Positions 2,080-19,349 of a DNA stretch of 25,371 nucleotides are shown piece after piece. The notes beneath the pieces were generated by a model. The model was not told where the DNA came from. It did not search any database and worked only from the letters and a program-made list of their open reading frames with translations. Source of the stretch: a virus (Duplodnaviria; Caudoviricetes); IMG/VR virus record IMGVR_UViG_3300037631_003982, positions 1 through 25,371 of that record; one strand, given 5' to 3'. Position numbers and translations under genes: made by a program. Numbering within the stretch: position 1 is the stretch's first letter; each line of letters starts with the position of its first letter.

Positions 2080-2403
2080 TTAAAGTATACCCATCTGATA
2101 TTTGGCTTCGTCTGATACATGAATATCAGGATTCCAAGGGGGCTCAAATGTTAGATTTAACTTAATCATGTTTACACCTTCTGTACTTCTAACTGCAAAT
2201 TCTGATTCCATCATAATTAGTTCACCAAAAGGACAATTAGGTGCAGTTAGAGTCATTAGAACTTGCACATCGTTTTCTTCGTTTACACTGATGTCATAAA
2301 TTAAACCTAAGTCTACTATGTTGATTCCTATCTCAGGATCTACAACTCGTTTTAAGTTACGGCGTACTTGCTCTGCTAAACTAATTTCGCTACTGCTTTG
2401 CAT
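2080..2403 (-). CDS. sufT: DUF59/MIP18 family Fe-S assembly factor (SufT/PaaD-like)
   Basis: VVDPEIGINIVDLGLIYDI, MTLTAPNCP, FEPPW motifs; last gene of the suf run. Confidence 0.88.
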   Translation of the reverse strand: MQSSSEISLAEQVRRNLKRVVDPEIGINIVDLGLIYDISVNEENDVQVLMTLTAPNCPFGELIMMESEFAVRSTEGVNMIKLNLTFEPPWNPDIHVSDEAKYQMGIL

Positions 2404-3560
2404 AAAGAATCTGATAATTTTTGTAAGTCTTCTTTTGTATTATATATACCAGGACTTACTCTTAGTACACCTTTTCCGCCACTTACTTTATTTACAATAG
2501 GATGAGCACATAACTTTCCAACCCTAACAGCAATGTTATCCATTCCTAACAAAGCACTCACATCACTTGGATGATATCCATGGCATGTAAAACTGTAAAC
2601 ATATCTTCCGTTTTGTCTGTAATTAGGATATATTAATTTTAATCCTTGTATGTTAAAGATGTCAGTGTCGCTCATAGCAAAATCTAGTTTTGTAAAGTGT
2701 CTTGAAATCTCATTGTAACCAACAAATTTAATGTATTCAGCCGCAACACCTAACCCTAATATACCTGCTATGTTTGGTGTACCTACTTCGTGTTTAGCAG
2801 GACCGTCATAAAATTCTACGTTACCTTCAAAGTCATAATGGCTAACAGAACCTCCGCCTAGCCTTACACTTCTCAAACGTTCAAATGGTATTCTACTATA
2901 CATAAATCCTATGCCTGTTGGTCCATACATTTTATGACCACTAAAAACAGCATAGTCAATAGTATAAGGATCAAACTCATGTGTTCCAATAGTTTGACAT
3001 CCATCAACTATAACCTTAATCCCTTGATCATGTGCCGCCTTACATAGTTTTCTAAAGTTAGTTCCTATACCAGTTACATTACTATGACTATGTATGGCCA
3101 ATACTGCATAAGGATACTGTTCAAATAATTTACATGCTTCTTCTGTATTAATAGTGCCACGTTCTGTAACAGGTAGTACAACAAGCCTTCCATTCTTAAC
3201 TGTTCTTCCCTGTGCCATCCAAGGTAATATGTTTGCTGTATGTTCTGCTTCAGTTGTAATTACGACTGGTGCATCTTTATGCCACTCTGCAATCATGTTT
3301 AAACCTTCTGTAGCACCTGCTGTAAACATTATTTGTTCTGTTCTTGCCCCTATTAGTTCTGCTACTTGCTCTCTGGATAGTTCTATATCTGCAGATACTT
3401 CTTGACTAATAGAAAAGTCTCCCCTATTAACATTACATCTTTGTTGTTCATAATATCTATTCATACGATCTAAAACACTTTGATGTGTTTGTGTTGATGC
3501 CGCACTATCTAAATATACTAGATCAGGATTGTTTGCTAATGTTGGAAAGTCTTGTTTCAT
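2376..3560 (-). CDS. sufS: SufS-type cysteine desulfurase (class V PLP aminotransferase)
   Basis: LVYLDSAAS, EHTAN, VDGCQ, FSGHKMYGPTGIG (PLP Lys), EVGTPNIAG, RVGKLCAHP (catalytic Cys). Confidence 0.9.
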   Translation of the reverse strand: MKQDFPTLANNPDLVYLDSAASTQTHQSVLDRMNRYYEQQRCNVNRGDFSISQEVSADIELSREQVAELIGARTEQIMFTAGATEGLNMIAEWHKDAPVVITTEAEHTANILPWMAQGRTVKNGRLVVLPVTERGTINTEEACKLFEQYPYAVLAIHSHSNVTGIGTNFRKLCKAAHDQGIKVIVDGCQTIGTHEFDPYTIDYAVFSGHKMYGPTGIGFMYSRIPFERLRSVRLGGGSVSHYDFEGNVEFYDGPAKHEVGTPNIAGILGLGVAAEYIKFVGYNEISRHFTKLDFAMSDTDIFNIQGLKLIYPNYRQNGRYVYSFTCHGYHPSDVSALLGMDNIAVRVGKLCAHPIVNKVSGGKGVLRVSPGIYNTKEDLQKLSDSLCKAVAKLV

Positions 3561-4744
3561 TTTAAAAATGCTTCTTTTAATAATTCTGTTGCTTGGAAAG
3601 TATCTATACCTTTACTAGTTAAATAGTATAAATCATTTTCGTTTATGTTACTTATTGTACAACCGTGTGTACACTCTATTTCTTTGGTATTAATATCTAA
3701 TTGAGGTTCTGATACAGCACTTGCCCTATCACTTAACAATAAATTTTTATTGGTAAGGTGTGCCTTAACATCTGTTGCATCATCGTCAACAATAATATTA
3801 CCTAAGAAACTACTATACGATTTATCATCTAATACAGATTTAACGTCTATATTGCTTTCACTTTCTATATCTTTGTGATGTACGTCAACAACTATATTAT
3901 TAATGGATTCATTCTTACAATTAAATCTGCCCTTCACATCTGTTTTACAGTTTCTATATGAATCTATATAAAGTAAATCCTGATTGTATAAACTACCTGA
4001 TCCTATTGTTTCTATATCAAACTTACTGTTAGGGAATTGTACTACTTGAGTCTCTATAACATTAAGACCTTTTTCCTTATTGGTTTCATCATGATATCTC
4101 GTAACTTTTAGTTTACCATGTTCTCTAACCAAATAGATTATTTTATATATTTTACATCCTTCTTTGTTTTCAAATGTTTCTTCTATGGTGACATTGGCTC
4201 CTTCACCTACATCTATAATAGCAACCACACAATTTAAATCGTTATCCTTATATCTGTCTGCATATTTTACAGTAATTTGAGACTTTGCTTGGTTTTTATA
4301 TCTGATCCCTACAGGTCCTGTGGAATGTATTAATGCTAAATCACCTATTCTTCCTGTGGGTTCAAAGTAGTCTTGATACAATTTTAATTTGTTACCAAAT
4401 GTAGTAGGATTATAAAAGTTACACTCATACTTTCCAGCGAAGTAGTCAGAACTTGTAAGATGTAAATATCCATCATCTATTAGTACAAGACTTGTTTCAT
4501 TATCTGTATCAAAGGATTTTATTTTTGGATTAGTTGTATTTGTATGGTTACGCAATACATCTATCTTCATATTCTTATAAAACTTATTGGACAAAGTATC
4601 GCCACTCTTACTTAATGAGGAGTAAACTTCCTTTGCAATATTGTGGAATGGAGACTTCTTATTAATTAGGTTGTTATGTCTCAACCCAACATCTAATAAT
4701 GAATGAAGATCTGTAAGACTATATTTTACTTCCTTCATCCTCAA
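3557..4744 (-). CDS. sufD: Fe-S cluster assembly protein SufD (divergent)
   Basis: C-terminal NKNLLLSDRA...EPQLDI...ECTHG...LYYLTSKGI; located between sufC and sufS. Start may be the second ATG at 4738. Confidence 0.82.
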   Translation of the reverse strand: MRMKEVKYSLTDLHSLLDVGLRHNNLINKKSPFHNIAKEVYSSLSKSGDTLSNKFYKNMKIDVLRNHTNTTNPKIKSFDTDNETSLVLIDDGYLHLTSSDYFAGKYECNFYNPTTFGNKLKLYQDYFEPTGRIGDLALIHSTGPVGIRYKNQAKSQITVKYADRYKDNDLNCVVAIIDVGEGANVTIEETFENKEGCKIYKIIYLVREHGKLKVTRYHDETNKEKGLNVIETQVVQFPNSKFDIETIGSGSLYNQDLLYIDSYRNCKTDVKGRFNCKNESINNIVVDVHHKDIESESNIDVKSVLDDKSYSSFLGNIIVDDDATDVKAHLTNKNLLLSDRASAVSEPQLDINTKEIECTHGCTISNINENDLYYLTSKGIDTFQATELLKEAFLK

Positions 4745-5453
4745 ATCCGTTTTCTAATATATTGTAAGCAATATCTATATTGTCTGTTTGTTTAGCATAC
4801 CCAGACCTTTCTATTACTGTTAATGTATTAGGGTTCAACTTTTTAATTAACTCCGCATAATGACTTATAATAATTAAACATTTTCCCTCTTTACTAGCGA
4901 ATTCATTTAATTTTTCTACTAATACTTTAATAGCATCTACATCTAATCCACTATCAGGTTCATCTAGTATTGCAACTTGTGGGTCTAACATATCTAATTG
5001 TATTAGTTCGTTTTTCTTTTTCTCACCACCACTTGCTTCTAAATTTAATTGTTTCTTATCCCAACTAGGATCTAATCCTAGATCGTCTGAAAGTCCTCTA
5101 AACTTTGTTAAGTTATCTTTTATAGATATTGGTCCGTTTTTTGCTGTCAAACATTGTTTAACGAATTGAAAATTACTAAGTCCCTCTATTGGAGTAGGGT
5201 TTTGAAAACTAACAAACAACCCTGCTTGGGCTCGTTCATATGTTTCTAAATCTAATAAGTCGTTGTTATTAAGTGTAGCACCACCTTCTACCTGATAACT
5301 AGGGTTACCCATAAGAGCATGAGCAAATGTACTTTTTCCTACACCATTAGGTCCCATAATAATATGTACACCAGGGCCATACTCTAATGTTAATTGTTTT
5401 AGAATAGGAGAATATTCATCAACTTTTATCGATAAGTCTTGTACTACTAACAT
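4719..5453 (-). CDS. sufC: Fe-S cluster assembly ATPase SufC
   Basis: GPNGVGKST, ERAQAGLFVSFQNP, SGGEKKKNE, LDEPDSGLDVDA, IISHY. Confidence 0.93.
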   Translation of the reverse strand: MLVVQDLSIKVDEYSPILKQLTLEYGPGVHIIMGPNGVGKSTFAHALMGNPSYQVEGGATLNNNDLLDLETYERAQAGLFVSFQNPTPIEGLSNFQFVKQCLTAKNGPISIKDNLTKFRGLSDDLGLDPSWDKKQLNLEASGGEKKKNELIQLDMLDPQVAILDEPDSGLDVDAIKVLVEKLNEFASKEGKCLIIISHYAELIKKLNPNTLTVIERSGYAKQTDNIDIAYNILENGFEDEGSKI

Positions 5454-5785
5454 CAGTGATTCCTTCCTCCATCAAATACACATACAAAATATAATCCTAT
5501 ATCACTTGTATTATATACTTTGTGAAACTCTCCATCATTAATACAAACTACATCGCCTGCACCTACAGTAAACCGCCTATGGTCTATTTCCATTTCGCCT
5601 TCACCTGATACAAACATATATACTTCTTCTTGTCCTTGATGTCTATGTCCATTTGTTTCTTGTTGAGCTCTTAAAAATGTACTACTTAAAATTAAATTTT
5701 TACCAAAAGCATTGTCTTTTAACAAATAAGTTTCGTTGTCTTTAATAACTTCTCCGCCTATGTCTCTCATATCAACTTTTTGCAT
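5453..5785 (-). CDS. Cupin-2 domain protein
   Basis: GHRHQGQEEVYMFVSGEG...GDVVCINDGEFHKVYN metal-binding cupin motifs. Confidence 0.9.
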   Translation of the reverse strand: MQKVDMRDIGGEVIKDNETYLLKDNAFGKNLILSSTFLRAQQETNGHRHQGQEEVYMFVSGEGEMEIDHRRFTVGAGDVVCINDGEFHKVYNTSDIGLYFVCVFDGGRNH

Positions 5786-7227
5786 TATCCAACTGCTCCT
5801 TCCAGTGTTACATTTAATAATTTATTTGCCTCAGCGGCAAACTCTAGTGGTAAATGTTGAAATACATCTTTGCAAAACCCATTTACCACACAATTCACTG
5901 CGTCTTCCTCATCCAATCCTCTGCTTTGTAAATAGTATAATGCATCTTCTGATAACTTTCCTGTTGATGCCTCATGCTCTACAATACTGTTGTTATTATA
6001 CTGCATAACTACCGGTATTGTCAATGCCCTACTGTTATCTAACATTAAACTGTCACATTGTGTATAGTTCCTACTGTTGTCTGCCTTCTTTCCTATACGA
6101 ACTTGACCCCTGTAAGTGTTTGAACTATCTCCAAAACTTATGCCTTTGGATATAATGGTGCTTTTGGTATTCTTACCAACATGCAACATCTTTGTTCCTG
6201 TATCTGCTTGTTGTTTTCCTTTTGTTACCGCAACACTATAGAACTCTCCAACACTATTGTCTCCTTTGAGTATACAACTTGGGTACTTCCACGTAACGGC
6301 ACTTCCTGTCTCAACCTGTGTCCAACTTACCTTACTGCTTTCTCCCTTACACATTGCTCTCTTTGTTACAAAGTTTAGTACGCCACCAACTCCATTCTCA
6401 TCTCCTGGATACCAATTTTGTACTGTTGAGTATTTAATTTCTGCCCTGTCGTGTGTTACAAGTTCTACTACAGCCGCATGTAATGTATTCTCATCATATG
6501 CAGGAGCCGTACAACCTTCTAAGTAACTAACATAACTGTCCGCATCTGCTATAATCAGTGTTCTTTCAAACTGTCCTGTATTACGAGCATTGATGCGGAA
6601 GTATGTGTTTAATTCCATAGGACATCTTACGCCTTTTGGAATATAACAAAAGGTGCCATCAGTAAAGACGGCACTATTTAGGCAAGCAAAGTAATTATCC
6701 TTTGAAGGGATAACACTACCTAAATACTCTTTTACGAGTTCGGGGTGTTCTTGTATGGCTTCACTTATACTGCAAAATATAATGCCATGTTTTTTTAATT
6801 CTGATTGGAATGTTGTAGCAATACTAACACTATCAAATACAACGTCAACTGCTACTGTGGGTATTTTGTTTTCTGCTTCTATACCCAATAAGGAATCTCT
6901 TTCGTGTAATGGTACACCTAACTTATCAAAAGTGTCTAATATCTCTTGTGGAATATCTTCTTTGTTACGGAATTTAGGTGCTGAGTAATAACTTAATGCC
7001 TGATAATCTATAGGTGCATAGTTTACATGAGCCCATGTAGGCTCTTTTATTTTTTGTAAATGATCAAAGGCCTTCAACCTAAATTCAGTTACCCATTCAG
7101 GTTCGTTTTTTATAGCACTAAGTTTTCTTACTACTTCTTCTGTAAGTCCAGGTTCAAAGTCCTCAGTTTCAGTTGGTGTACTGAATCCTGCTGTATACTT
7201 ATTCTTTAATTCGTCTAGGTTATTCAA
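5785..7227 (-). CDS. sufB: Fe-S cluster scaffold protein SufB
   Basis: [58 protein letters not shown]; full-length 480 aa. Confidence 0.97.
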
Positions 7228-7519
7228 TGTTCTCCACCACTATGGTTAAAGGATATTTGTTAAATCTTGTTACCTGAACTGCTTCTTGTTTCTTTTGCTC
7301 AGCAATTTCATAGCCGTAAGTTCCAGCAATACCTTTTCCGTCTTCATGTATTTGCATCGTTACATCACGAGCCTCATCAATAGTTTTATTGAATATCTCT
7401 ACAAGTAACTGAACAACAAAATCCATAGGGGTGTAATCGTCGTTTAATAAAACAACATTGAATCTTTGTGGGAAATCTAATTTAGATTTGCTTATTGTGT
7501 TTAATTGTGTCTCTGCCAT
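7220..7519 (-). CDS. clpS: Clp protease adaptor ClpS
   Basis: [36 protein letters not shown]. Confidence 0.95.
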
Positions 7520-7725
7520 TATTTTGAGTGTTTAGGTAGTTTTGCTTCTACAAAAAACTCATGTTTTCTTTTAACAGGATTATACTTTTTAATTCTCATC
7601 TTTCTGTTTTCTTGAATTAAAGTTTTTGTTTTTACAAATGTGTAGTGATAAGTGTGACTATCCCTTGTTTCTCCTTCTGGGATAAGGTATAGTAACGTTT
7701 TTTTCTTATTGCTTTTGCTTGCCAT
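7519..7725 (-). CDS. rpmG: Ribosomal protein bL33 (Cys-less type, divergent)
   Basis: 68 aa basic protein with YHYTFVK...KMRIKKYNPVKRKHEFFVEAK, matching the L33 C-terminal pattern KKYxPxxRKHxxFxExK. Confidence 0.8.
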   Translation of the reverse strand: MASKSNKKKTLLYLIPEGETRDSHTYHYTFVKTKTLIQENRKMRIKKYNPVKRKHEFFVEAKLPKHSK

Positions 7726-7736
7726 AATATTTAAGT

Positions 7737-7762
7737 GGGGAGAGTATATTTCCCCTCTCCCC
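7737..7762 (-). terminator. GC-rich hairpin between hsp20 and rpmG (terminator or 5' stabiliser)
   Basis: GGGGAGAG(7737-44)/CTCTCCCC(7755-62) 8-bp stem. No good U-tract, so the role is uncertain. Confidence 0.45.
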
Positions 7763-7764
7763 TA

Positions 7765-7772
7765 TATTTATA
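7765..7772 (-). promoter_or_regulatory. T4-type late promoter upstream of the rpmG-clpS-suf chain
   Basis: Exact TATAAATA on -. Confidence 0.65.
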
Positions 7773-7779
7773 ATAAAGT

Positions 7780-8232
7780 TTAAGATACTTTAATTTTTTG
7801 TGGTTTTAATGCATCAGGAACATTTCTAAATAATTCTACTTTAAGTAGACCGTCCTCTAGTTTTGCACTCTTAACCTCCACATACTCAGCAAGTTTAAAA
7901 CTTCTCACAAAGTCTCTTTCTGCAATACCTTTATGTAAAAACTCGACATCGTCCATGTATCCGGACTCATCAGGTTTAATAGTACCAGTAATTAATAAGT
8001 TTCCGTCTTCCAACTGGATATCTATTTCGGACTTTTTAAATCCTGCAATAGCCAATGTAATGGAATACAGATCATCACCGTCTTTACTGATGTTGTATGG
8101 TGGATAGCCTTGTGAATTATTAGATGAATTCATTTGAGTTTCAAACTCATTGAATAGTCTGTCAAATCCGACTGTGGCTCTATATAGTGGGTTTAGTGTA
8201 TCAGAAGTGATACGAAATTGTTTGCTTACCAT
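7780..8232 (-). CDS. hsp20: Small heat-shock protein Hsp20 (IbpA-like)
   Basis: VGFDRLF, YPPYNI, ITLAIAGF, FLHKGIAERDFVRSFKLA, LEDGLL. Confidence 0.96.
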   Translation of the reverse strand: MVSKQFRITSDTLNPLYRATVGFDRLFNEFETQMNSSNNSQGYPPYNISKDGDDLYSITLAIAGFKKSEIDIQLEDGNLLITGTIKPDESGYMDDVEFLHKGIAERDFVRSFKLAEYVEVKSAKLEDGLLKVELFRNVPDALKPQKIKVS

Positions 8233-8306
8233 GATATTATCTCCTTAAAAAAGCAAGTTAATTTATTTTACTAGTTCTTTTTAAACCCTATTGGCGAATA
8301 AAAAGA
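8233..8306 (-). promoter_or_regulatory. ROSE-like RNA thermometer in the hsp20 leader
   Basis: Minus strand AACUUGCUUUUUUAAGGAG-N8-AUG: UUGCU (8252-56) just 5' of the SD (8241-47), preceded by a hairpin UCUUUUUA/UAAAAAGA (8276-8306). Confidence 0.65.
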
Positions 8307-8718
8307 TCGCGGAGTGAGGTCGTTTCTGTTAGTGTGTATCTGTATCTCCTCACAACACTTGGCAAACTTCTTGGTTACTTTAAGTGTTACCACTCTCAGT
8401 CCTTTGTTGGTTGCCCCAAAAAATAATGCTAATAGCATCATTCTAATCTTGGATTAAAAAGTCCGTGCTCTTTTGAAGACCTCTATTTCAAAGCCCGAGC
8501 ACTTTTGAAGACTTAATCTTCCTTGTGCTAAGTCTATAATACAAGTACCTAGTTCTTTAGCACGACGTATGTTTTCCTCATTCTTACCATTCGGTTCGTT
8601 TCTCTTACGATCTACTTACCTTGTGTAAGTCTGTTTCCAACTTACGGCAATTCAAATTTTACAGTAGACTTTAGTTTCTTACGATTCTATTGCCCTTGCA
8701 TTATTTGTTTTGCAAAGT
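8307..8718 (-). ncRNA. Candidate large structured RNA / hsp20 leader of unknown class
   Basis: Longest ORF-track-free gap in the window, at least 8 helices found by eye, starts just downstream of GATAAATA (8719-26). Confidence 0.5.
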
Positions 8719-8726
8719 TATTTATC
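8719..8726 (-). promoter_or_regulatory. Late-promoter-like motif at the 5' end of the structured region
   Basis: GATAAATA on -, 6 nt after the stop of the upstream gene. Confidence 0.55.
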
Positions 8727-13625: not shown

Positions 13626-13653
13626 ATTATAACAGGTTGTATTAGTTTGTCAA
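13626..13653 (-). promoter_or_regulatory. sigma70-like promoter
   Basis: TTGACA-N16-TATAAT with TGn; -10 ends 6 nt before ATG 13619. Confidence 0.75.
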
Positions 13654-13962: not shown

Positions 13963-14397
13963 TTAACTAAAATCTTTTAACATTTTTGTTATTTCTAATG
14001 CGTGTTGTTCTTCCATACCAATTTGACCTCTGGCATATTCTTCTAACATTATACTTGCATTTTCAACTTCTTCTAGTAATTCTTTGTATTTGTTTACTGC
14101 TCTAACTTCATGTTCTAAACTTTCAGTTAGTATTTGAATAACACTATGATCATGTGATTCTTCTATAGGTGCTATTTGTTGACTAGGATGTCCGTCAAAG
14201 CCTGTGATATATTCACCTGCAATCAAGGCATGTTGTAAACTTTCTGTTGCTTGTTCCTGTAGGAATGCTACAATAGGAATCCTGTTGGGTCCTGTTATCA
14301 TTAACGAACTGTGAGCATAACGTACAACTCCTGCCATTTCTAATTCAACTATCTCGTTGAGTAACTCACATACTCTTTTTAAATTTAAATCTTTCAT
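13963..14397 (-). CDS. bfr: Bacterioferritin/ferritin-like diiron protein
   Basis: LNEIVELEMAGVVRY, ESLQH, EHEVRAVNKY, EEQH: ferroxidase ExxH motifs of a four-helix bundle. Confidence 0.82.
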   Translation of the reverse strand: MKDLNLKRVCELLNEIVELEMAGVVRYAHSSLMITGPNRIPIVAFLQEQATESLQHALIAGEYITGFDGHPSQQIAPIEESHDHSVIQILTESLEHEVRAVNKYKELLEEVENASIMLEEYARGQIGMEEQHALEITKMLKDFS

Positions 14398-14465
14398 TTG
14401 TTATATTTCCAAGTTATCCATATAGTTGCAGTTACCATAAATGCAATTAGTAGTGTTAATCCCAT
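14394..14465 (-). CDS. 23-aa single-TM micro-protein (absent from ORF track)
   Basis: MGLTLLIAFMVTATIWITWKYNK; TAATG overlap with the cytochrome c stop and ATGA overlap with the bfr start. Confidence 0.6.
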   Translation of the reverse strand: MGLTLLIAFMVTATIWITWKYNK

Positions 14466-14911
14466 TACCTAGGTAGTCCTGCTTCTATAAAGGCACCAAT
14501 TGTTTCCATATCCTTTGCGGATAACATTCCTGCCTGTGCCCACATAGTGCTACTCATTGCACCAACCTGTTCTTTATTTTTGTATTGTACAAGTCTGTTT
14601 ACAATGTATGATTTGTCTCTACCTTGTAAACTTGGAAATGGTCCCATACCACCGCCATCTGCTCCGTGACATGCGGCACAACCTGCCCATAAACTTCTAA
14701 TGCTACTGAACTCATCAGCACTTGCTAATGCTTGTTTGCGTTGTTCTATCTCTGCTGGTGTTCCATACAGTTTAACATACTCAACATAACATTCGCCTGT
14801 GCAACTATGTCCACCTGTGCCACCAGTGTATTCTAACTCTGGGTATACTTTAAATCCAAAGAACACCGCTATTGCTAGTGTTCCTAATAATGCCATTCCT
14901 AATTCTCTCAT
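14465..14911 (-). CDS. Membrane-anchored class I c-type cytochrome (c553/c4-like domain)
   Basis: N-terminal TM, CAACHGADG heme motif, FPSLQG, YIVNRLVQYK, distal Met in MSSTMWAQA. Confidence 0.9.
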   Translation of the reverse strand: MRELGMALLGTLAIAVFFGFKVYPELEYTGGTGGHSCTGECYVEYVKLYGTPAEIEQRKQALASADEFSSIRSLWAGCAACHGADGGGMGPFPSLQGRDKSYIVNRLVQYKNKEQVGAMSSTMWAQAGMLSAKDMETIGAFIEAGLPR

Positions 14912-14986: not shown

Positions 14987-15778
14987 CTATTCTCCATCGT
15001 AATACTCAAGACGCTCAATGTCGTCTTCGTTTGTTTCTTCACCATATTGTATTTCTATAATATGGCAAGGTTCTGTAGTCTTATTTACAATTTGATGCCA
15101 ACTACCTGCTCTAACAGTAAAGGATTGGTCTGTTTTAATAACATGGTATGAGTAATGCTCAGGTAAATCAGTGTCAGCACCATACTTAACTTCACATTGC
15201 CCTTTACTTACAAACCATATTTCACTTCGTTTAAAGTGTCGCTGATAACTAATTCCTTTACCTGGTTCAATAATAAGTTCTTTTACCTTTACCGCTGAGT
15301 CTTGAAACAAATCACTAAACTCGCCCCACACTCTGCGTTCTGTTGGATACTTCCATTCTTTTAATATCCAACTACTACTGTTGGATTTATCACTTCCGCC
15401 TACACCAAATTTAAATGTGTAGCCATCTACTGACATCTCTGGAATATTGTCTTTTGTTCTATCACCTCCGTTGCAAAAGATCCTATTATATCCTGGGTAT
15501 GCTTTCTTTATATGTTTTAAAGTACTACATACAGAACCGTCATTATCACCACCACCAAATACACTATCAACGTATTCAAGTCCTTCTATTATATTTGCAC
15601 GTTCTTCAAAAGGCATAAAAGGTCTACCTTTCTTTTTAGTTAACCATTCATCAGAGTTTACTATAACACATAGTTGGTCACCATATTTTTTTGCTTCTTT
15701 AAATAATTTTAAATGTCCTGAGTGCAAAGGATCAAATCCTCCACTTACAATTACTATTGAGGGTTTTTTACTTTCCAC
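14987..15778 (-). CDS. Cytidylyltransferase-like domain fused to a mannose-6-P isomerase type II cupin
   Basis: SGGFDPLHSGH, KKGRPFM, NGGDR, KSNSSSWIL; then RVWG, SYQRHFKRSEIW, WHQI, IIEIQYGE, EDDIERLE. GTG start at 15778 preferred over 15811. Confidence 0.88.
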   Translation of the reverse strand: MESKKPSIVIVSGGFDPLHSGHLKLFKEAKKYGDQLCVIVNSDEWLTKKKGRPFMPFEERANIIEGLEYVDSVFGGGDNDGSVCSTLKHIKKAYPGYNRIFCNGGDRTKDNIPEMSVDGYTFKFGVGGSDKSNSSSWILKEWKYPTERRVWGEFSDLFQDSAVKVKELIIEPGKGISYQRHFKRSEIWFVSKGQCEVKYGADTDLPEHYSYHVIKTDQSFTVRAGSWHQIVNKTTEPCHIIEIQYGEETNEDDIERLEYYDGE

Positions 15779-16157
15779 GATCACGCAACCTTCTGATGCG
15801 TTCCTTAGCAACCCAAGCCTTTCTTTTCTCTCGTTTACCTTTTAAATATTTTTGTCCGGAAACAGGAGTAGGCATATACTCTCCTTTAGCAATCATATTA
15901 TCTTGTTCTTTTCTAGAACGTTTCTTTGCTTGATCCTTCATACGTTTTCGTTTTACTGAAGGTTTTTCGTAGTGTTCTCTTTTGGAAAGTTCTTTTTGGA
16001 AATCCATTTTTTCTAAAACTTTTTTAAGACGTCTTATAGCACCGTTAACATCATCATATCTTACTTCAATATTTCGACCCTTGAATTTATCTAAGTAATG
16101 TTCTTTCTTTTTAGGTTTGCTGTCCCTTTTTGTGTATTTGTTTTTATTAAATGCCAT
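15768..16157 (-). CDS. rpsU: Ribosomal protein bS21 with N- and C-terminal extensions
   Basis: IEVRYDDVNGAIRRLKK...ELSKREHYEKPSVKRKR core. Confidence 0.88.
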   Translation of the reverse strand: MAFNKNKYTKRDSKPKKKEHYLDKFKGRNIEVRYDDVNGAIRRLKKVLEKMDFQKELSKREHYEKPSVKRKRMKDQAKKRSRKEQDNMIAKGEYMPTPVSGQKYLKGKREKRKAWVAKERIRRLRDRGK

Positions 16158-17421
16158 CTATTCCTCTGTAAAGTTTGTAGTCCTCATCTATCTCCTCTCT
16201 ATTATCGTTAAAAATTAGGATAGGTTTAATTTCCTCTGCTGGATATTTATCGTAACGAACTCCTATAACACCTTTTTTATTGAGCTCACTTGCTCTAAAC
16301 ATTATAGATGTAACACTATTTTCAACAAAAGATTTTAATGATCTTGCACCCACCTTGCTTTGATCTGCAAGTCTGGCTACATTAGATAAGTATTCGTCTT
16401 CAAAATGTATATCTAAATTATCTATTTTTAGGAGTGCTTCAGTTTGTGATAAAACATTATTCTTTATGCTACCTAATATACTTTTTAGATGAGATTCGTT
16501 TAATTTTTCTAATGTTGCAATCACTGGAAGTCTACCTACGAGTTCAGGTATAAGTCCAAACTGTATTACATCTTGTGGTGTAACTGATTCAAGTAATTCT
16601 TCTCTTACCTTGGTGTCTATAAGTTTACTATTGAATCCCATATTACTGTTCTTTCTTAATCGTTTTTCTATTTGAGCTTCTATACCTACAAATGCTCCGC
16701 TTAATATAAACAACACATTACTAGTATCAAATTCTACATATTCGTCTGTAAATTTTTTACCTGTACCTACTTTAATTTTTGTTTTAGTTCCTTCTATAAG
16801 TCTTAACAAAGCCTGTTGTACACCTTCTCCACTTACATCTCTTGTACTTGTATTGCTCTCAGACTTCCTAGCCTTCTTATCAACCTCATCTATAAAAACA
16901 ACACCTCTTTGGGCTACTTCTATATCGTAATCTGCTAAACTTAAAAGTCTTTCTAAAACACTTTCTACGTCCTCACCAACATAACCTGCTTCAGTTAATG
17001 TTGTGGCATCAGCAATAGCAAATGGTACGTTGAGCTTCTTAGCAAGTGTCTTAGCAAGTAGTGTTTTACCTGTTCCAGTTGAACCCATTAATAGTATATT
17101 TGTTTTCTCTAATTCAACATCTTTTACTTGATTAGTAATTCGTTTATAATGATTGTATGCATTTACAGACAATATTTCTTTAGCATAATCTTGTGCCATT
17201 ATATATTCGTCTAAAAAGGATTTAATTTCCATTGGTTTTGGAATGGAAGAGAAGTCTAAAGTATCGAAACTTAAATTACTGTCTTCTTTTACAATGTCAT
17301 AACTTAATTTTATACATTCATCACAGATATAAACATTAGGACCTGCTATGAGTTTTTCAACTTCCTCTCTATGCTTACCACAGAAGTTACAATTTAGTTT
17401 TTGTTGTGTGTCGTCTGTCAT
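16147..17421 (-). CDS. clpX: ATP-dependent Clp protease ATPase ClpX
   Basis: CNFC...ICDEC zinc finger, GSTGTGKT, DATTLTEAGYVGEDVE, IDEVDK, RDVSGEGVQQALL, MGF loop, PELVGRLP, GARSL. Confidence 0.97.
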   Translation of the reverse strand: MTDDTQQKLNCNFCGKHREEVEKLIAGPNVYICDECIKLSYDIVKEDSNLSFDTLDFSSIPKPMEIKSFLDEYIMAQDYAKEILSVNAYNHYKRITNQVKDVELEKTNILLMGSTGTGKTLLAKTLAKKLNVPFAIADATTLTEAGYVGEDVESVLERLLSLADYDIEVAQRGVVFIDEVDKKARKSESNTSTRDVSGEGVQQALLRLIEGTKTKIKVGTGKKFTDEYVEFDTSNVLFILSGAFVGIEAQIEKRLRKNSNMGFNSKLIDTKVREELLESVTPQDVIQFGLIPELVGRLPVIATLEKLNESHLKSILGSIKNNVLSQTEALLKIDNLDIHFEDEYLSNVARLADQSKVGARSLKSFVENSVTSIMFRASELNKKGVIGVRYDKYPAEEIKPILIFNDNREEIDEDYKLYRGIDGI

Positions 17422-19349
17422 TTATTTTTAGTTATGTACGTTTTATTTATGTCTGGTTCATCATCTGACTTCGGTAAAGGCGTGGCCCAGAATCCTATTT
17501 TCTTTCTAACTTCTTCTTCAGAAGATTTTTGTAACAGTTCTAATATTTCCTTTTCTGTTAGATCTTCTTTATTAAGTTCACTGTTAGCCATCAATCTTGC
17601 GGCTTCACGTAAGTCTCCAGTTGCGGCTTTTTCTACTTCAACCGGTACTTCCTTTTCTATGACCTGTGGAGGAGTCATTTTAAGATTAGTATTCTCTTGA
17701 CGTAAAGCAGATATTTCAATTAGTAATTCGTTTACCTTATCTGTGTTTTCTACTTTTACAATTCTTTGTTTGCTTGGGACTTCAACGACTCGCTCTGGTC
17801 CTGGAACTTCAACGATTCGTTCTGGTCCTGGGACTTCCTTTTCGACAATGCGTTCAACCTCCTTGATGACCTCAATCTCCTTTGGGACTTCAACTTCAAC
17901 GATCTTTTCAACTGGCACCTCCCTTTCAACTACCACTTCTTTAATTACTTCAACCGGAACTTCTACTATCTTCTCAACTTCTTTTTCTATTATAACTTCT
18001 TTAGGCTTATCGTCAAGAGCCTTTAATGTTTTTTTGTACTTCTTTTCCAATAACGATAAGGCCTTTTCTATTTTGTCCGCTCTTTTTTTTTGGGAGGCAC
18101 TTTCTGCCATTGCCTTTGCGGCATCTTCTGCCGCACTAGGAAGGTCTGGCATATTATCGCCGTATATTTCTCTGCTTTGTTCTTCAAAATCACTATCCCA
18201 ATATTTGTCTGGGTCGTCTTCTGGGTCCTTTGGAGTACTAGGTCCTGTGCTTTCTAAATTAATACCGTACCTAAGTAATGTCTGGTTTGCCGCAATCAAT
18301 AACATAACTGCTAATGGATCAAATACAAAAACAAAAAGTAATATGAATATTCTTATTGCTTTGTCCATTACTGATTGGTCTGATGCACCATAAAGTAATT
18401 CAGCCACATATTTAATTGGGCCTACTTCTCGCTCTAAGTCTCTTACTTTACTTTCTGCTTCAAACTTATCGTCTTTTAATACTGCAATGACATCATATAT
18501 ACCATCTATCTGATTATTAAATTCGTCTATCTTAATTAAGTTATCGTCTTGTGCTGATTGGCTATTGTTTCTTAATCTGTTTATTTCAGCATTAGCACCG
18601 TTGATTGTGTCTTGTGCTTGTAATCTATATGCATCTATATTTGCTTGTTGCTTGTCTATGTCTACTTTTATATCTGCACGTTGTTGTTCTTGTTGGTTGT
18701 ACAAGTCGTTTGCCTGTGCAACATAGTCTATTTTTTCTGTAGTGTCTCCTTGGAATATACCACCTTCATCTGTGGTTACAATCTCTACACCTTTGTTTCT
18801 TAAATCGTTTACTGCTTTATCTAATACTGCTAGTTGGTCTCTAAGTCTGTCTATTTGTCCTTGTGCATAATCTATATCGCCTTGTACTCTTTGCCATGCA
18901 CCATCTCTTATAGTTTCTTGTTGTGATATACTTTCACTTACGTCAACACTTCCGCCTATACTGAGTATTCTATCTTCTATGATATCTATTTTATTTTCTT
19001 CTCTGGCTATCTGTCCGTCTAGTCTATCTACTTCTGCAAATGCTACAGCACCATCGCTTGAAACATCAGAAGCCGCTTTAGAAAGATAACCGTAGATACC
19101 AGCAGATGTAATTAACATAAGAACAATTACGGCACTACTAAGGTATGTTTTTAAGGCTAAGGAAGTTTCGTTCCAATAACGATACAGCCAACTTGCTGTA
19201 AGTAGTTTACCTACTTCTAATACACCAGCCATTATGGCTACACTTAGAGGCATGCCTCCAAAGAATATCATAAGTCCAGCAATACTGAACCAAGCGGCTA
19301 CGCCGGCAATTGCCAGAGCGGTGATTAATGTAAGTAGTCCGAACCACAT
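17418..19349 (-). CDS. Membrane-anchored long coiled-coil protein with V/E/K/P-rich repeats
   Basis: Three N-terminal TMs (LEVGKL), coiled coil, GPIKYVAE, fourth TM (FVFDPLAV), then EKIVEVP repeats. Confidence 0.85.
   Translation of the reverse strand: MWFGLLTLITALAIAGVAAWFSIAGLMIFFGGMPLSVAIMAGVLEVGKLLTASWLYRYWNETSLALKTYLSSAVIVLMLITSAGIYGYLSKAASDVSSDGAVAFAEVDRLDGQIAREENKIDIIEDRILSIGGSVDVSESISQQETIRDGAWQRVQGDIDYAQGQIDRLRDQLAVLDKAVNDLRNKGVEIVTTDEGGIFQGDTTEKIDYVAQANDLYNQQEQQRADIKVDIDKQQANIDAYRLQAQDTINGANAEINRLRNNSQSAQDDNLIKIDEFNNQIDGIYDVIAVLKDDKFEAESKVRDLEREVGPIKYVAELLYGASDQSVMDKAIRIFILLFVFVFDPLAVMLLIAANQTLLRYGINLESTGPSTPKDPEDDPDKYWDSDFEEQSREIYGDNMPDLPSAAEDAAKAMAESASQKKRADKIEKALSLLEKKYKKTLKALDDKPKEVIIEKEVEKIVEVPVEVIKEVVVEREVPVEKIVEVEVPKEIEVIKEVERIVEKEVPGPERIVEVPGPERVVEVPSKQRIVKVENTDKVNELLIEISALRQENTNLKMTPPQVIEKEVPVEVEKAATGDLREAARLMANSELNKEDLTEKEILELLQKSSEEEVRKKIGFWATPLPKSDDEPDINKTYITKNK
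17775..17837. repeat. 27-bp in-frame tandem repeat (2.3 copies)
   Basis: tgggacttcaacgactcgctctggtcc / tggaacttcaacgattcgttctggtcc / tgggacttc, encoding EVPGPER(I/V)V. Confidence 0.85.

Follow-up and report, generated by a model that had tools for sequence, protein, structure and literature searches.

Can a virus encode a whole machine for building iron-sulfur (Fe-S) clusters and, if so, whose enzymes does it serve? The question is raised by the IMG/VR record IMGVR_UViG_3300037631_003982 (Duplodnaviria; Caudoviricetes), which we analyzed in full (25,371 bases; hereafter, the window), scanning 44 open reading frames (ORFs). The window carries genes of the SUF pathway of Fe-S biogenesis, which an earlier note, made from the sequence alone, had described as a viral scaffold complex coupled to bL33 and ClpS under a late-type promoter. 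We find that the window likely derives from a marine jumbo phage of the T4-like kind, and that this phage probably has a working SUF machine of its own (sufB, sufC, sufD, sufS, and sufT), which would mainly feed its own radical S-adenosylmethionine (SAM) enzymes. An intact, phage-owned SUF is well supported by sequence and evolutionary evidence; its activity, its timing, and the recipients of its clusters are inferred.

An unbroken SUF gene chain with conserved key residues

Eight ORFs, rpmG-clpS-sufB-cupin-sufC-sufD-sufS-sufT, occupy positions 7725 to 2080 of the minus strand. The chain is led by rpmG (7519–7725), encoding a divergent, cysteine-free bL33, and clpS (7220–7519), encoding an N-degron adaptor. 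These are followed by sufB (5785–7227; scaffold subunit, TTG start), a gene for a 110–amino acid (aa) cupin that is an accessory insert (5453–5785), sufC (4719–5453; ABC ATPase), sufD (3557–4738; a full-length, fast-evolving partner subunit), sufS (2376–3560; group II cysteine desulfurase), and sufT (2080–2403; DUF59/PaaD-like maturation factor). Successive genes overlap by 1, 8, 1, 1, 26, 4, and 28 nucleotides (nt); the sufC/sufD overlap is 26 nt counted from an in-frame TTG at 4744, or 20 nt with the ATG at 4738 as the start of sufD. Because all seven junctions measure at least 1 nt, every gene overlaps its successor, and the unbroken chain that the earlier note had described is borne out. 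Taken as a whole, the observation made in that note is confirmed, and its interpretation is partly supported.

Family assignments are consistent across the chain. SufB, which is of the PRK11814 type (NF008773 and TIGR01980), and SufC (TIGR01978) score above NCBIfam cut-offs; SufD, SufS (best NCBIfam model TIGR01979), SufT (PF01883), and ClpS (PF02617, E = 4e-27) match the right models below NCBIfam and above Pfam cut-offs. The cupin (PF07883) has intact HxH...E and H metal motifs, present in 120 and 118 of 120 homologs, respectively. As a single sequence, the rpmG product matches bL33 weakly (Pfam E = 0.0034, below cut-off). A profile built from 11 copies, searched against the PDB, gave 46 matches, all of them bL33 chains (best E = 7e-6), so that membership in the bL33 family appears firm for the profile and weak for the single protein.

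Residues with known functional roles in SufB, SufC, SufD, and SufS were compared among syntenic relatives, in sets of rows that include two pairs of identical copies; SufB numbering follows the E. coli protein through an alignment to 5awf (5awf_A, E = 7e-188). All 16 rows conserve the SufB residues aligned to C254, Q285, W287, K303, C405, and E432-H433-E434. The SufC Walker A and B motifs, Q-loop, SGG signature, D-loop, and H-loop are present in all 15 rows, as are the equivalents of SufD C358 and H360. SufS retains its pyridoxal phosphate lysine and catalytic cysteine, and SufT its DPE...T...C motif, in 14 of 14 rows each; the ClpS pocket residues (N-D-D...H, intact in the window) are present in 16 of 16. 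The motifs that the earlier note had reported as intact in SufB, SufC, SufD, and SufS are thus all there. There are two departures: the positions of E. coli SufB C414 and H417 are Ser and Leu in the window, and the window SufS has RVGKLC in place of RxGHHC, keeping neither His before the cysteine.

SufD looks the weakest of the subunits, but its predicted model has a full-length fold (pLDDT 88.5), and its best fold match is E. coli SufD (5awf_B; TM score of 0.70). SufB and SufD co-fold with a score of 0.75, against 0.00 for the best control, with at least 96% of contacts agreeing between runs, a partner pLDDT of at least 84, and a predicted interface on the C-terminal beta-helix strands. The mark used for co-folding is reached by 116 of 157 solved pairs and 2 of 215 mismatched pairs. 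Because a similar complex (5awf) has already been solved, we take this result as showing likeness rather than binding.

A probable lineage of T4-like jumbo phages

The 25-kb window has no capsid, terminase, or gp55 gene among its scanned ORFs, and scans for tRNAs and Rfam families found none of either. A SufB scan of IMG/VR returned 35 loci, 15 of which have the order hsp20-(rpmG)-clpS-sufB; 13 of these carry sufB, sufC, sufD, sufS, and sufT in order, and two are cut by contig ends. One syntenic relative, G002, is a T4-like jumbo phage of 340 kb (91% complete). Pfam searches of 378 of its 379 ORFs found gp23, portal, prohead protease, terminase, sheath, baseplate, DNA polymerase B, and helicase genes, along with a gp55-type sigma factor (E = 2.5e-93). 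G002 has a homolog for 25 of 41 window proteins, many of them in the same order. Among the five syntenic records, terminase occurs in three (G002, G003, and G005) and gp23 in one, the rest being fragments. The record closest to the window, G001 (93% SufB identity), is a fragment of 57 kb that carries lysozyme and endonuclease genes of phage type. It is synteny with hallmark-bearing relatives, rather than the genes of the window, that strongly indicates a viral origin. The earlier note had proposed looking for hallmark genes on the same contig: the window itself holds none, but in the syntenic G002, gp23, portal, terminase, sheath, and gp55 stand on one contig with the cluster.

Cellular SufBs are more distant. 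Identity to the window protein is 61 to 66% among the best 80 GTDB loci (3 of 64 parts of GTDB scanned) and at most 67% in 151 alphaproteobacterial and 68% in 151 gammaproteobacterial genomes. The 302-genome tallies, for which genomes were chosen from these two proteobacterial classes, include the unpublished G088, G237, and G339, on which the maxima do not depend. The 120 closest proteins in a large database are 89 to 100% identical to the window SufB. The cluster shares with proteobacterial operons their native sufB-C-D-S-T order, including sufT in last place, and a PRK11814-type SufB. It differs from them in identity (SufB, 61 to 68%; SufC, 34 to 42%; SufD, approximately 21 to 44% over partial alignments; SufS, 29 to 35%) and in its setting, as none of the 80 cellular loci has clpS, rpmG, or a cupin gene beside sufB. 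The earlier statement that cellular suf operons are not led by rpmG-clpS therefore holds in this sample.

In SufB trees, the syntenic sequences form one clade (SH-aLRT 100) under both a plain model (85 rows, of which 36 are viral or from phage records and 49 are taken from the 80 cellular ones) and a mixture model (47 rows). A wider clade that adds 14 other viral SufBs has a support of 99 under the plain model. Five viral rows nest among cellular ones, and SUF has therefore been captured more than once. In the SufC and SufS trees, which carry long-branch warnings, all viral rows stand apart from cellular rows (supports of 100 and 92, respectively) and fall into the same two subgroups. Neither SufB tree resolves the placement among proteobacteria. 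We consider it likely that the SUF block came from a proteobacterium by an ancient capture, was placed behind a phage hsp20-(rpmG)-clpS, and has been inherited as a unit.

Codon comparisons with four relatives indicate purifying selection on the suf genes, with ratios of nonsynonymous to synonymous substitution rates (dN/dS) of 0.05 to 0.09 for SufB, 0.15 to 0.19 for SufC, 0.25 to 0.51 for SufD, 0.11 to 0.26 for SufS, and 0.04 to 0.12 for SufT, at dS values near saturation. Against this background, we regard it as scarcely credible that the contig is cellular or chimeric, or that it holds a recent, decaying host capture. The lack of a hallmark gene in the window and the natively proteobacterial gene order would fit such an origin, but the same order recurs with phage-type flanks on 15 independent records, hallmark genes stand on the contigs of relatives, GC content is uniform across the window (30 to 38%), and selection is purifying. 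The near-identical copy inside one bacterial lineage that would be expected was not found in the 80 GTDB loci and 302 proteobacterial genomes: cellular SufBs reach 68% at most there, and the viral proteins form their own clade. This explanation is largely refuted.

SufB is 88 to 93% identical among close relatives, compared with 34 to 47% for SufD. Such uneven drift could mean that phage subunits mix into, or take over, the host SUF complex, in which SufB would matter most and SufC, SufD, and SufS, which drift fast, would be adaptors. Other phage lineages cut SufD to 143 to 194 aa or scatter the genes, and G037 (92% complete, no sufB) keeps a sufC-sufD pair (L499:4973–6716) whose SufC has no ABC signature and whose SufD is without the C/H ligands, which would suit an adaptor role. 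We nevertheless judge this explanation very unlikely, as all checked catalytic residues of SufC, SufD, and SufS are kept in syntenic rows, SufD folds at full length like the E. coli protein, and the set is inherited together. The shortened SufDs occur in L014, L017 to L022, L026, L027, L029, L032, and L256; in G006, sufB and a mini sufD lie approximately 96 kb apart.

Cultured phages offer little precedent. SufB matches occur in 23 of 50,697 phage records. The closest cultured relatives of the G002 capsid are the jumbo myoviruses PA5oct/Paride (70%) and GAP32/CBB (62%), yet none of the 23 records is of these types. Phage records of Staphylococcus, Listeria, and Enterococcus gave 42% SufB matches. 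The Microcystis phage MaAM05 was rejected as a precedent: its sufBCDS-iscU locus (L036, MW495066.1, 267786–273195) sits at the record end beside panB, panC, and pxpA, has 54% GC, nests with cellular rows, and may be host DNA.

Fe-S supply and its probable clients

The cluster resembles the E. coli-type SUF system (sufABCDSE; PDB 5awf and 2zu0) in the retained catalytic and ligand residues of SufB, SufC, SufD, and group II SufS, in the predicted SufB-SufD interface, and in the presence of SufE elsewhere in phage relatives. It differs in being phage-borne, in its altered SufS motif, in having no IscR/Rrf2 gene in front, and in being led by hsp20-rpmG-clpS with phage-type promoters. The sufE of relatives is detached and sits beside clpP. 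From the roles of the E. coli components, SufS would take sulfur from cysteine, SufE would relay it to SufB, SufBC2D would assemble the cluster using adenosine triphosphate, and SufT would help to deliver it. Oxidative-stress tolerance, which the earlier note ascribed to the viral complex, would be a property carried over from cellular SUF biology.

SufE is missing from the window and present in 11 of 20 SufB-bearing records, including both near-complete ones. Within the same clade, it is encoded with its cysteine in G002, G004, G005, and G026, and sufE lies directly before clpP in all four clade records that show it (two of them near-identical). Five records of other SUF lineages have sufE between sufS and sufT. 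We found no A-type carrier (SufA) in the window or in the other syntenic fragments searched; the carrier is present in G007, G008, G009, and G031, which belong to other SUF lineages.

The relatives have abundant potential clients. G002 has 11 radical SAM matches and 12 long ORFs with CxxxCxxC, together with genes for a ferredoxin, an FNR-like reductase, and SAM synthetase. Seven of its radical SAM genes, several with SPASM domains, form a tandem array around a desaturase gene and near genes for a carbamoyltransferase and a 2-oxoglutarate–Fe(II) oxygenase (L134:4503–14249 and L133:4580–12610). Three more stand with the SAM synthetase gene at the other contig end, and the set would make up a candidate modification pathway. 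Among other SUF phages, there are 22 radical SAM matches in G007 (complete) and 23 in G006 (55% complete); five near-complete jumbo phages without SufB have 1, 7, 1, 1, and 5. One of these five is G037, whose single match is weak. The suggestion in the earlier note that the virus supplies its own Fe-S enzymes thus gains from a large, self-encoded Fe-S demand in relatives, but the window itself contains no client.

Several observations weigh against a phage-owned machine that feeds phage enzymes. The difference in radical SAM counts has a P value of 0.035 and compares two genomes with five, all of them hand-picked and related. Radical SAM genes occur in 11 of 12 gp23 relatives, and SufBD was detected in none of the 12; relatives of this kind reach 15 radical SAM genes each (two fragments of 44 to 47% completeness) and 8 (74% complete). 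The expansion is therefore clade-wide, and SUF may help without being required. SufE has diverged (E = 7e-9), a search of G002, at 91% completeness, turned up no A-type carrier, and the second His of RxGHHC is missing from SufS in 14 of 14 rows. SufD drifts fast, the dN/dS values suffer from the near saturation of dS, and support for the wider grouping of all viral SufBs falls from 99 to 86 (phage/cellular split) under the mixture model. Furthermore, the hallmark genes and Fe-S clients that are absent from the window are known from relatives at 78% SufB identity, and the 57 kb of the closer G001 have no gp23, terminase, or radical SAM match.

A serious rival is that the machine works mainly for the host: through a long infection, when iron is limiting or oxidative stress is high, it would keep the Fe-S enzymes of host respiration and metabolism in repair. 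Stress-related genes in the window (for peroxiredoxin, a ferritin-like protein, Hsp20, and cytochrome c) and in G002 (for superoxide dismutase, alternative oxidase, and glutaredoxins) fit this explanation, as does a recurring promoter type that suggests early expression (see below). It also matches the reading given to viral sufE in the accessible part of PMC8940887. SUF-bearing records nevertheless have 11 to 23 radical SAM genes of their own, compared with 1 to 7 in complete SUF-less ones, and we consider host repair unlikely as the main role. The two uses are mutually compatible, and supply of the phage's own radical SAM enzymes remains the reading that we prefer.

Two predicted promoter types

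An exact T4-type late octamer, TATAAATA, lies on the minus strand at 7772–7765, ahead of rpmG, and is a predicted late (gp55-type) promoter. The octamer was rejected as evidence when taken alone, with 2 copies in the window against 5.64 expected, and the exact form occurs in 2 of 12 rpmG-bearing loci. The weight of TATAAATA comes instead from the recurring position of its TAAATA core: in all 12 rpmG-bearing loci examined, the hsp20-rpmG spacer holds a GC-rich hairpin, and the core sits 1 to 3 nt ahead of it. In G002, TAAATA occurs upstream of genes 99 times in the sense orientation, against 22 expected and 35 antisense, including before the portal, terminase, and sheath genes. It thus has the properties of a T4-type late promoter, namely, a −10 motif without a −35 element, enriched before genes, in a genome with a gp55 sigma factor. 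Phage CBB is described as having RpoD-like early promoters and a gp55-like sigma factor, and in both CBB and GAP32 the late motif is predicted to be ATAAATA (PMC5259590, accessible text).

The hairpin that follows the motif (7737–7762, minus strand; −16.4 kcal/mol) has a weak U tail in the window (3 T). Seven of the 12 loci have at least five T in the next 8 nt, and in relatives the hairpin appears terminator-like. A late start 6 nt downstream of TAAATA would fall in its first arm, weakening it from approximately −16 to −9 kcal/mol, so that late transcripts would pass the hsp20 terminator.

A perfect TTGACA-N18-TATAAT site (12/12 match), missed by the earlier note, lies on the minus strand inside the 3′ end of sufB (6024–5995), 239 nt before the next gene. 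It is a predicted early promoter for cupin-sufC-sufD-sufS-sufT. The window has four perfect sigma-70 sites compared with 0.06 expected, the other three being intergenic and upstream of genes. Sites matching at least 11 of 12 positions occur in or just before the cluster in all 12 loci examined (shuffle mean, 0.32 per region); controls gave two antisense matches and 1 of 59 cellular loci, most of which have a higher GC content. The site stands before clpS in three loci, at the start of sufC in six, in the sufB 3′ end in window/L001/L004, and elsewhere in L034; L002 and L005 have it before clpS and none in sufB. In five of the six sufC-start cases, the ATG comes 6 nt after the −10 box, and early transcripts therefore likely look leaderless. 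Promoters ending 6 nt before an ATG are seen at window positions 13653–13619 and 9258–9224 and before sufC in L007, L008, L010, L013, and L033. Many other genes of this genome have AGGAG sites, unlike these leaderless-looking ones.

Because the sigma-70–type promoter recurs in 12 of 12 loci, expression both early and late is more likely than late expression only; host sigma-70 would likely act early and TAAATA late. The late-type promoter of the earlier note stands insofar as its TAAATA core is conserved, but exclusively late expression is weakened by the recurring sigma-70 sites.

Nine RNA-labelled sequencing runs from five studies contained only a 0.06 to 0.15 share of the words searched for. 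Short contigs from four RNA-labelled runs cover suf genes, some nearly identically (207 nt with 0 differences, 232 with 3, and 236 with 4). We rejected these contigs as expression evidence, as 24 to 29 of 30 bins were covered, including unrelated genes, and contigs are blind to transcription, strand, and timing. All that they establish is the presence of close relatives in libraries from marine and salt-marsh sites.

Largely positional links to bL33, ClpS, and the cupin

Does the cluster act together with the genes in front of it? clpS directly precedes sufB, and hsp20 lies upstream of the cluster, in all 15 syntenic loci. Of these loci, 11 have rpmG, and the cupin gene occupies the sufB-sufC site in 2 of 14 IMG/VR syntenic loci, as well as in L286 and L287. 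This junction takes other inserts, such as DUF1289 in G002. Among 44 loci found with ClpS as the seed, hsp20 is upstream in 28, SufB lies within 7 kb in two and never directly behind clpS, and none has a bL33 of the window type. Other SUF phages have clpS apart from sufB. The simplest reading of these arrangements is that hsp20-clpS is an older phage backbone, behind which there was one old insertion of suf; rpmG and clpS would then likely be neighbors rather than parts of the SUF machine.

It has to be weighed whether rpmG, clpS, the cupin gene, and suf instead form one functional late operon, in which bL33 would retune ribosomes and ClpS would send host Fe-S proteins to proteolysis, freeing iron. 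The unbroken overlaps in the window, the fixed clpS-sufB adjacency, the sufE-clpP adjacency, and the ClpX, ClpP, ClpS, and ClpA-like ATPase of G002 would all suit such an operon. We hold it to be decidedly unlikely, as rpmG is absent from 4 of 15 loci and the cupin gene from 12 of 14, sigma-70 promoters split the chain at varying points (in three relatives, between rpmG and clpS), clpS follows hsp20 in many suf-less phages, and an order conserved in one clade may reflect a single insertion event. Of the coupling to bL33 and ClpS that had been claimed earlier, the gene order is thus real, but the link is largely positional. A functional Clp link is possible, because both suf loci of the clade touch a clp gene.

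A more far-reaching variant of phage supply, which we put forward as speculation and think unlikely, is a self-contained Fe-S economy. A complete SUF would be joined by electron supply from ferredoxin and the FNR-like reductase and by SAM synthetase, with sufC-D-S-T expressed early and rpmG-clpS-sufB late. Phage ClpS and ClpP, whose genes each adjoin a suf locus, would degrade host Fe-S proteins to feed the 11 to 23 radical SAM enzymes.

Structured hsp20 leader and neighboring genes

Upstream of the cluster, hsp20 (7780–8232, minus strand; PF00011 and phrog_432) encodes an IbpA-like small heat shock protein. It is preceded by an ORF-poor leader of approximately 490 nt (8233–8724, minus strand) behind a TAAATA motif at 8724–8719. 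The leader is conserved, modular, and noncoding, has no Rfam match, and is predicted to be structured (minimum free energy z score of −3.3), with compensatory changes in 22 of 32 predicted consensus pairs among 17 sequences. It holds GNRA-capped hairpins and a twin CTTCAAAAG-module hairpin. The hexamers of the latter covary, with complementarity retained in all 29 distinct copies and three variants among them; 42 of 44 two-copy loci have hsp20 downstream. At its end, an invariant ACTTGCT...AGGAGA hairpin, which we take to resemble a ROSE thermometer, spans the ribosome-binding site and start site. In one salt-marsh RNA run, the summed contig depth is 2099 to 8455 at the leader and at most 84 elsewhere; the contigs are possibly from relatives, and we regard this as a hint only.

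Downstream of sufT lies a further minus-strand unit (1079–2082) with more TAAATA motifs at 2082–2067, a DUF805 gene (1619–2041), and a gene for a Prx5-type peroxiredoxin (1079–1609). Prx5 follows the cluster in all 13 complete syntenic loci. The DUF805 stretch (1619–2060) is an optional insert found among syntenic loci only in L005 and L011, and in a close relative, an RNA-library contig runs from sufT to the peroxiredoxin gene with no such insert between them.

Elsewhere in the window, adjacent genes for a ferritin-like protein and a c-type cytochrome (13963–14911) suggest a possible iron store for the SUF machine. A 643-aa membrane protein (17418–19349) has a coiled coil, V/E/K-rich repeats, and no family match; in many of these phages, its gene is conserved immediately ahead of clpX. 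The bS21 encoded at 15768–16157 has long N- and C-terminal extensions, and a search for its short relatives gave eight matches. The window bL33 had no match in cultured phages. In G002, genes for CsgF, CsgG, FecR, and curlin repeats adjoin a CHASE2 adenylate cyclase gene (L129:10308–14716).

Place among known viral Fe-S genes

Phage Fe-S carrier genes alongside radical SAM expansions have already been published. The accessible part of Nishimura et al. 2017 (PMC5332604) describes marine T4-like genomes with ATC (A-type carriers), IscU, paaD (the family of SufT), and as many as 12 radical SAM genes; its authors already propose a supply of viral Fe-S proteins. As far as that part shows, the phages have Fe-S carriers and IscU only, compared with the scaffold and desulfurase of the window, and 10 supplementary files of the paper gave no match to the terms SufB, SufC, SufD, SufS, SufE, or cysteine desulfurase. 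Viral sufE without sufS has been reported (PMC8940887, accessible part). The available sections of PMC7678222 and 10.1101/2023.02.24.528798 contain nothing on phage SufBCD, and we found no report of a phage SufBCD scaffold in a literature search with thin coverage of subscription papers.

Likewise, phage bL33 and ClpS were each already known (PMC6375957 and PMC7824862, accessible parts), and bL33 and bS21 are common in aquatic viruses (Mizuno et al. 2019, PMC6375957). The window encodes both ribosomal proteins. Compared with the published examples, its bL33 is longer (68 aa) and divergent, and the accessible text of PMC6375957 draws no link to SUF.

The Fe-S genes published for phages are single helpers (A-type carriers, IscU, SufE, and PaaD/SufT), whereas a whole scaffold with its desulfurase would amount to a virus-borne cofactor factory. 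It offers an answer to how 11 to 23 radical SAM enzymes may be matured in phages. These viruses also amount to a natural test of the SUF system: SufB stays fixed, and SufD drifts, or, in other lineages, shrinks to a third or loses its ligands, which may reveal which parts of the scaffold matter.

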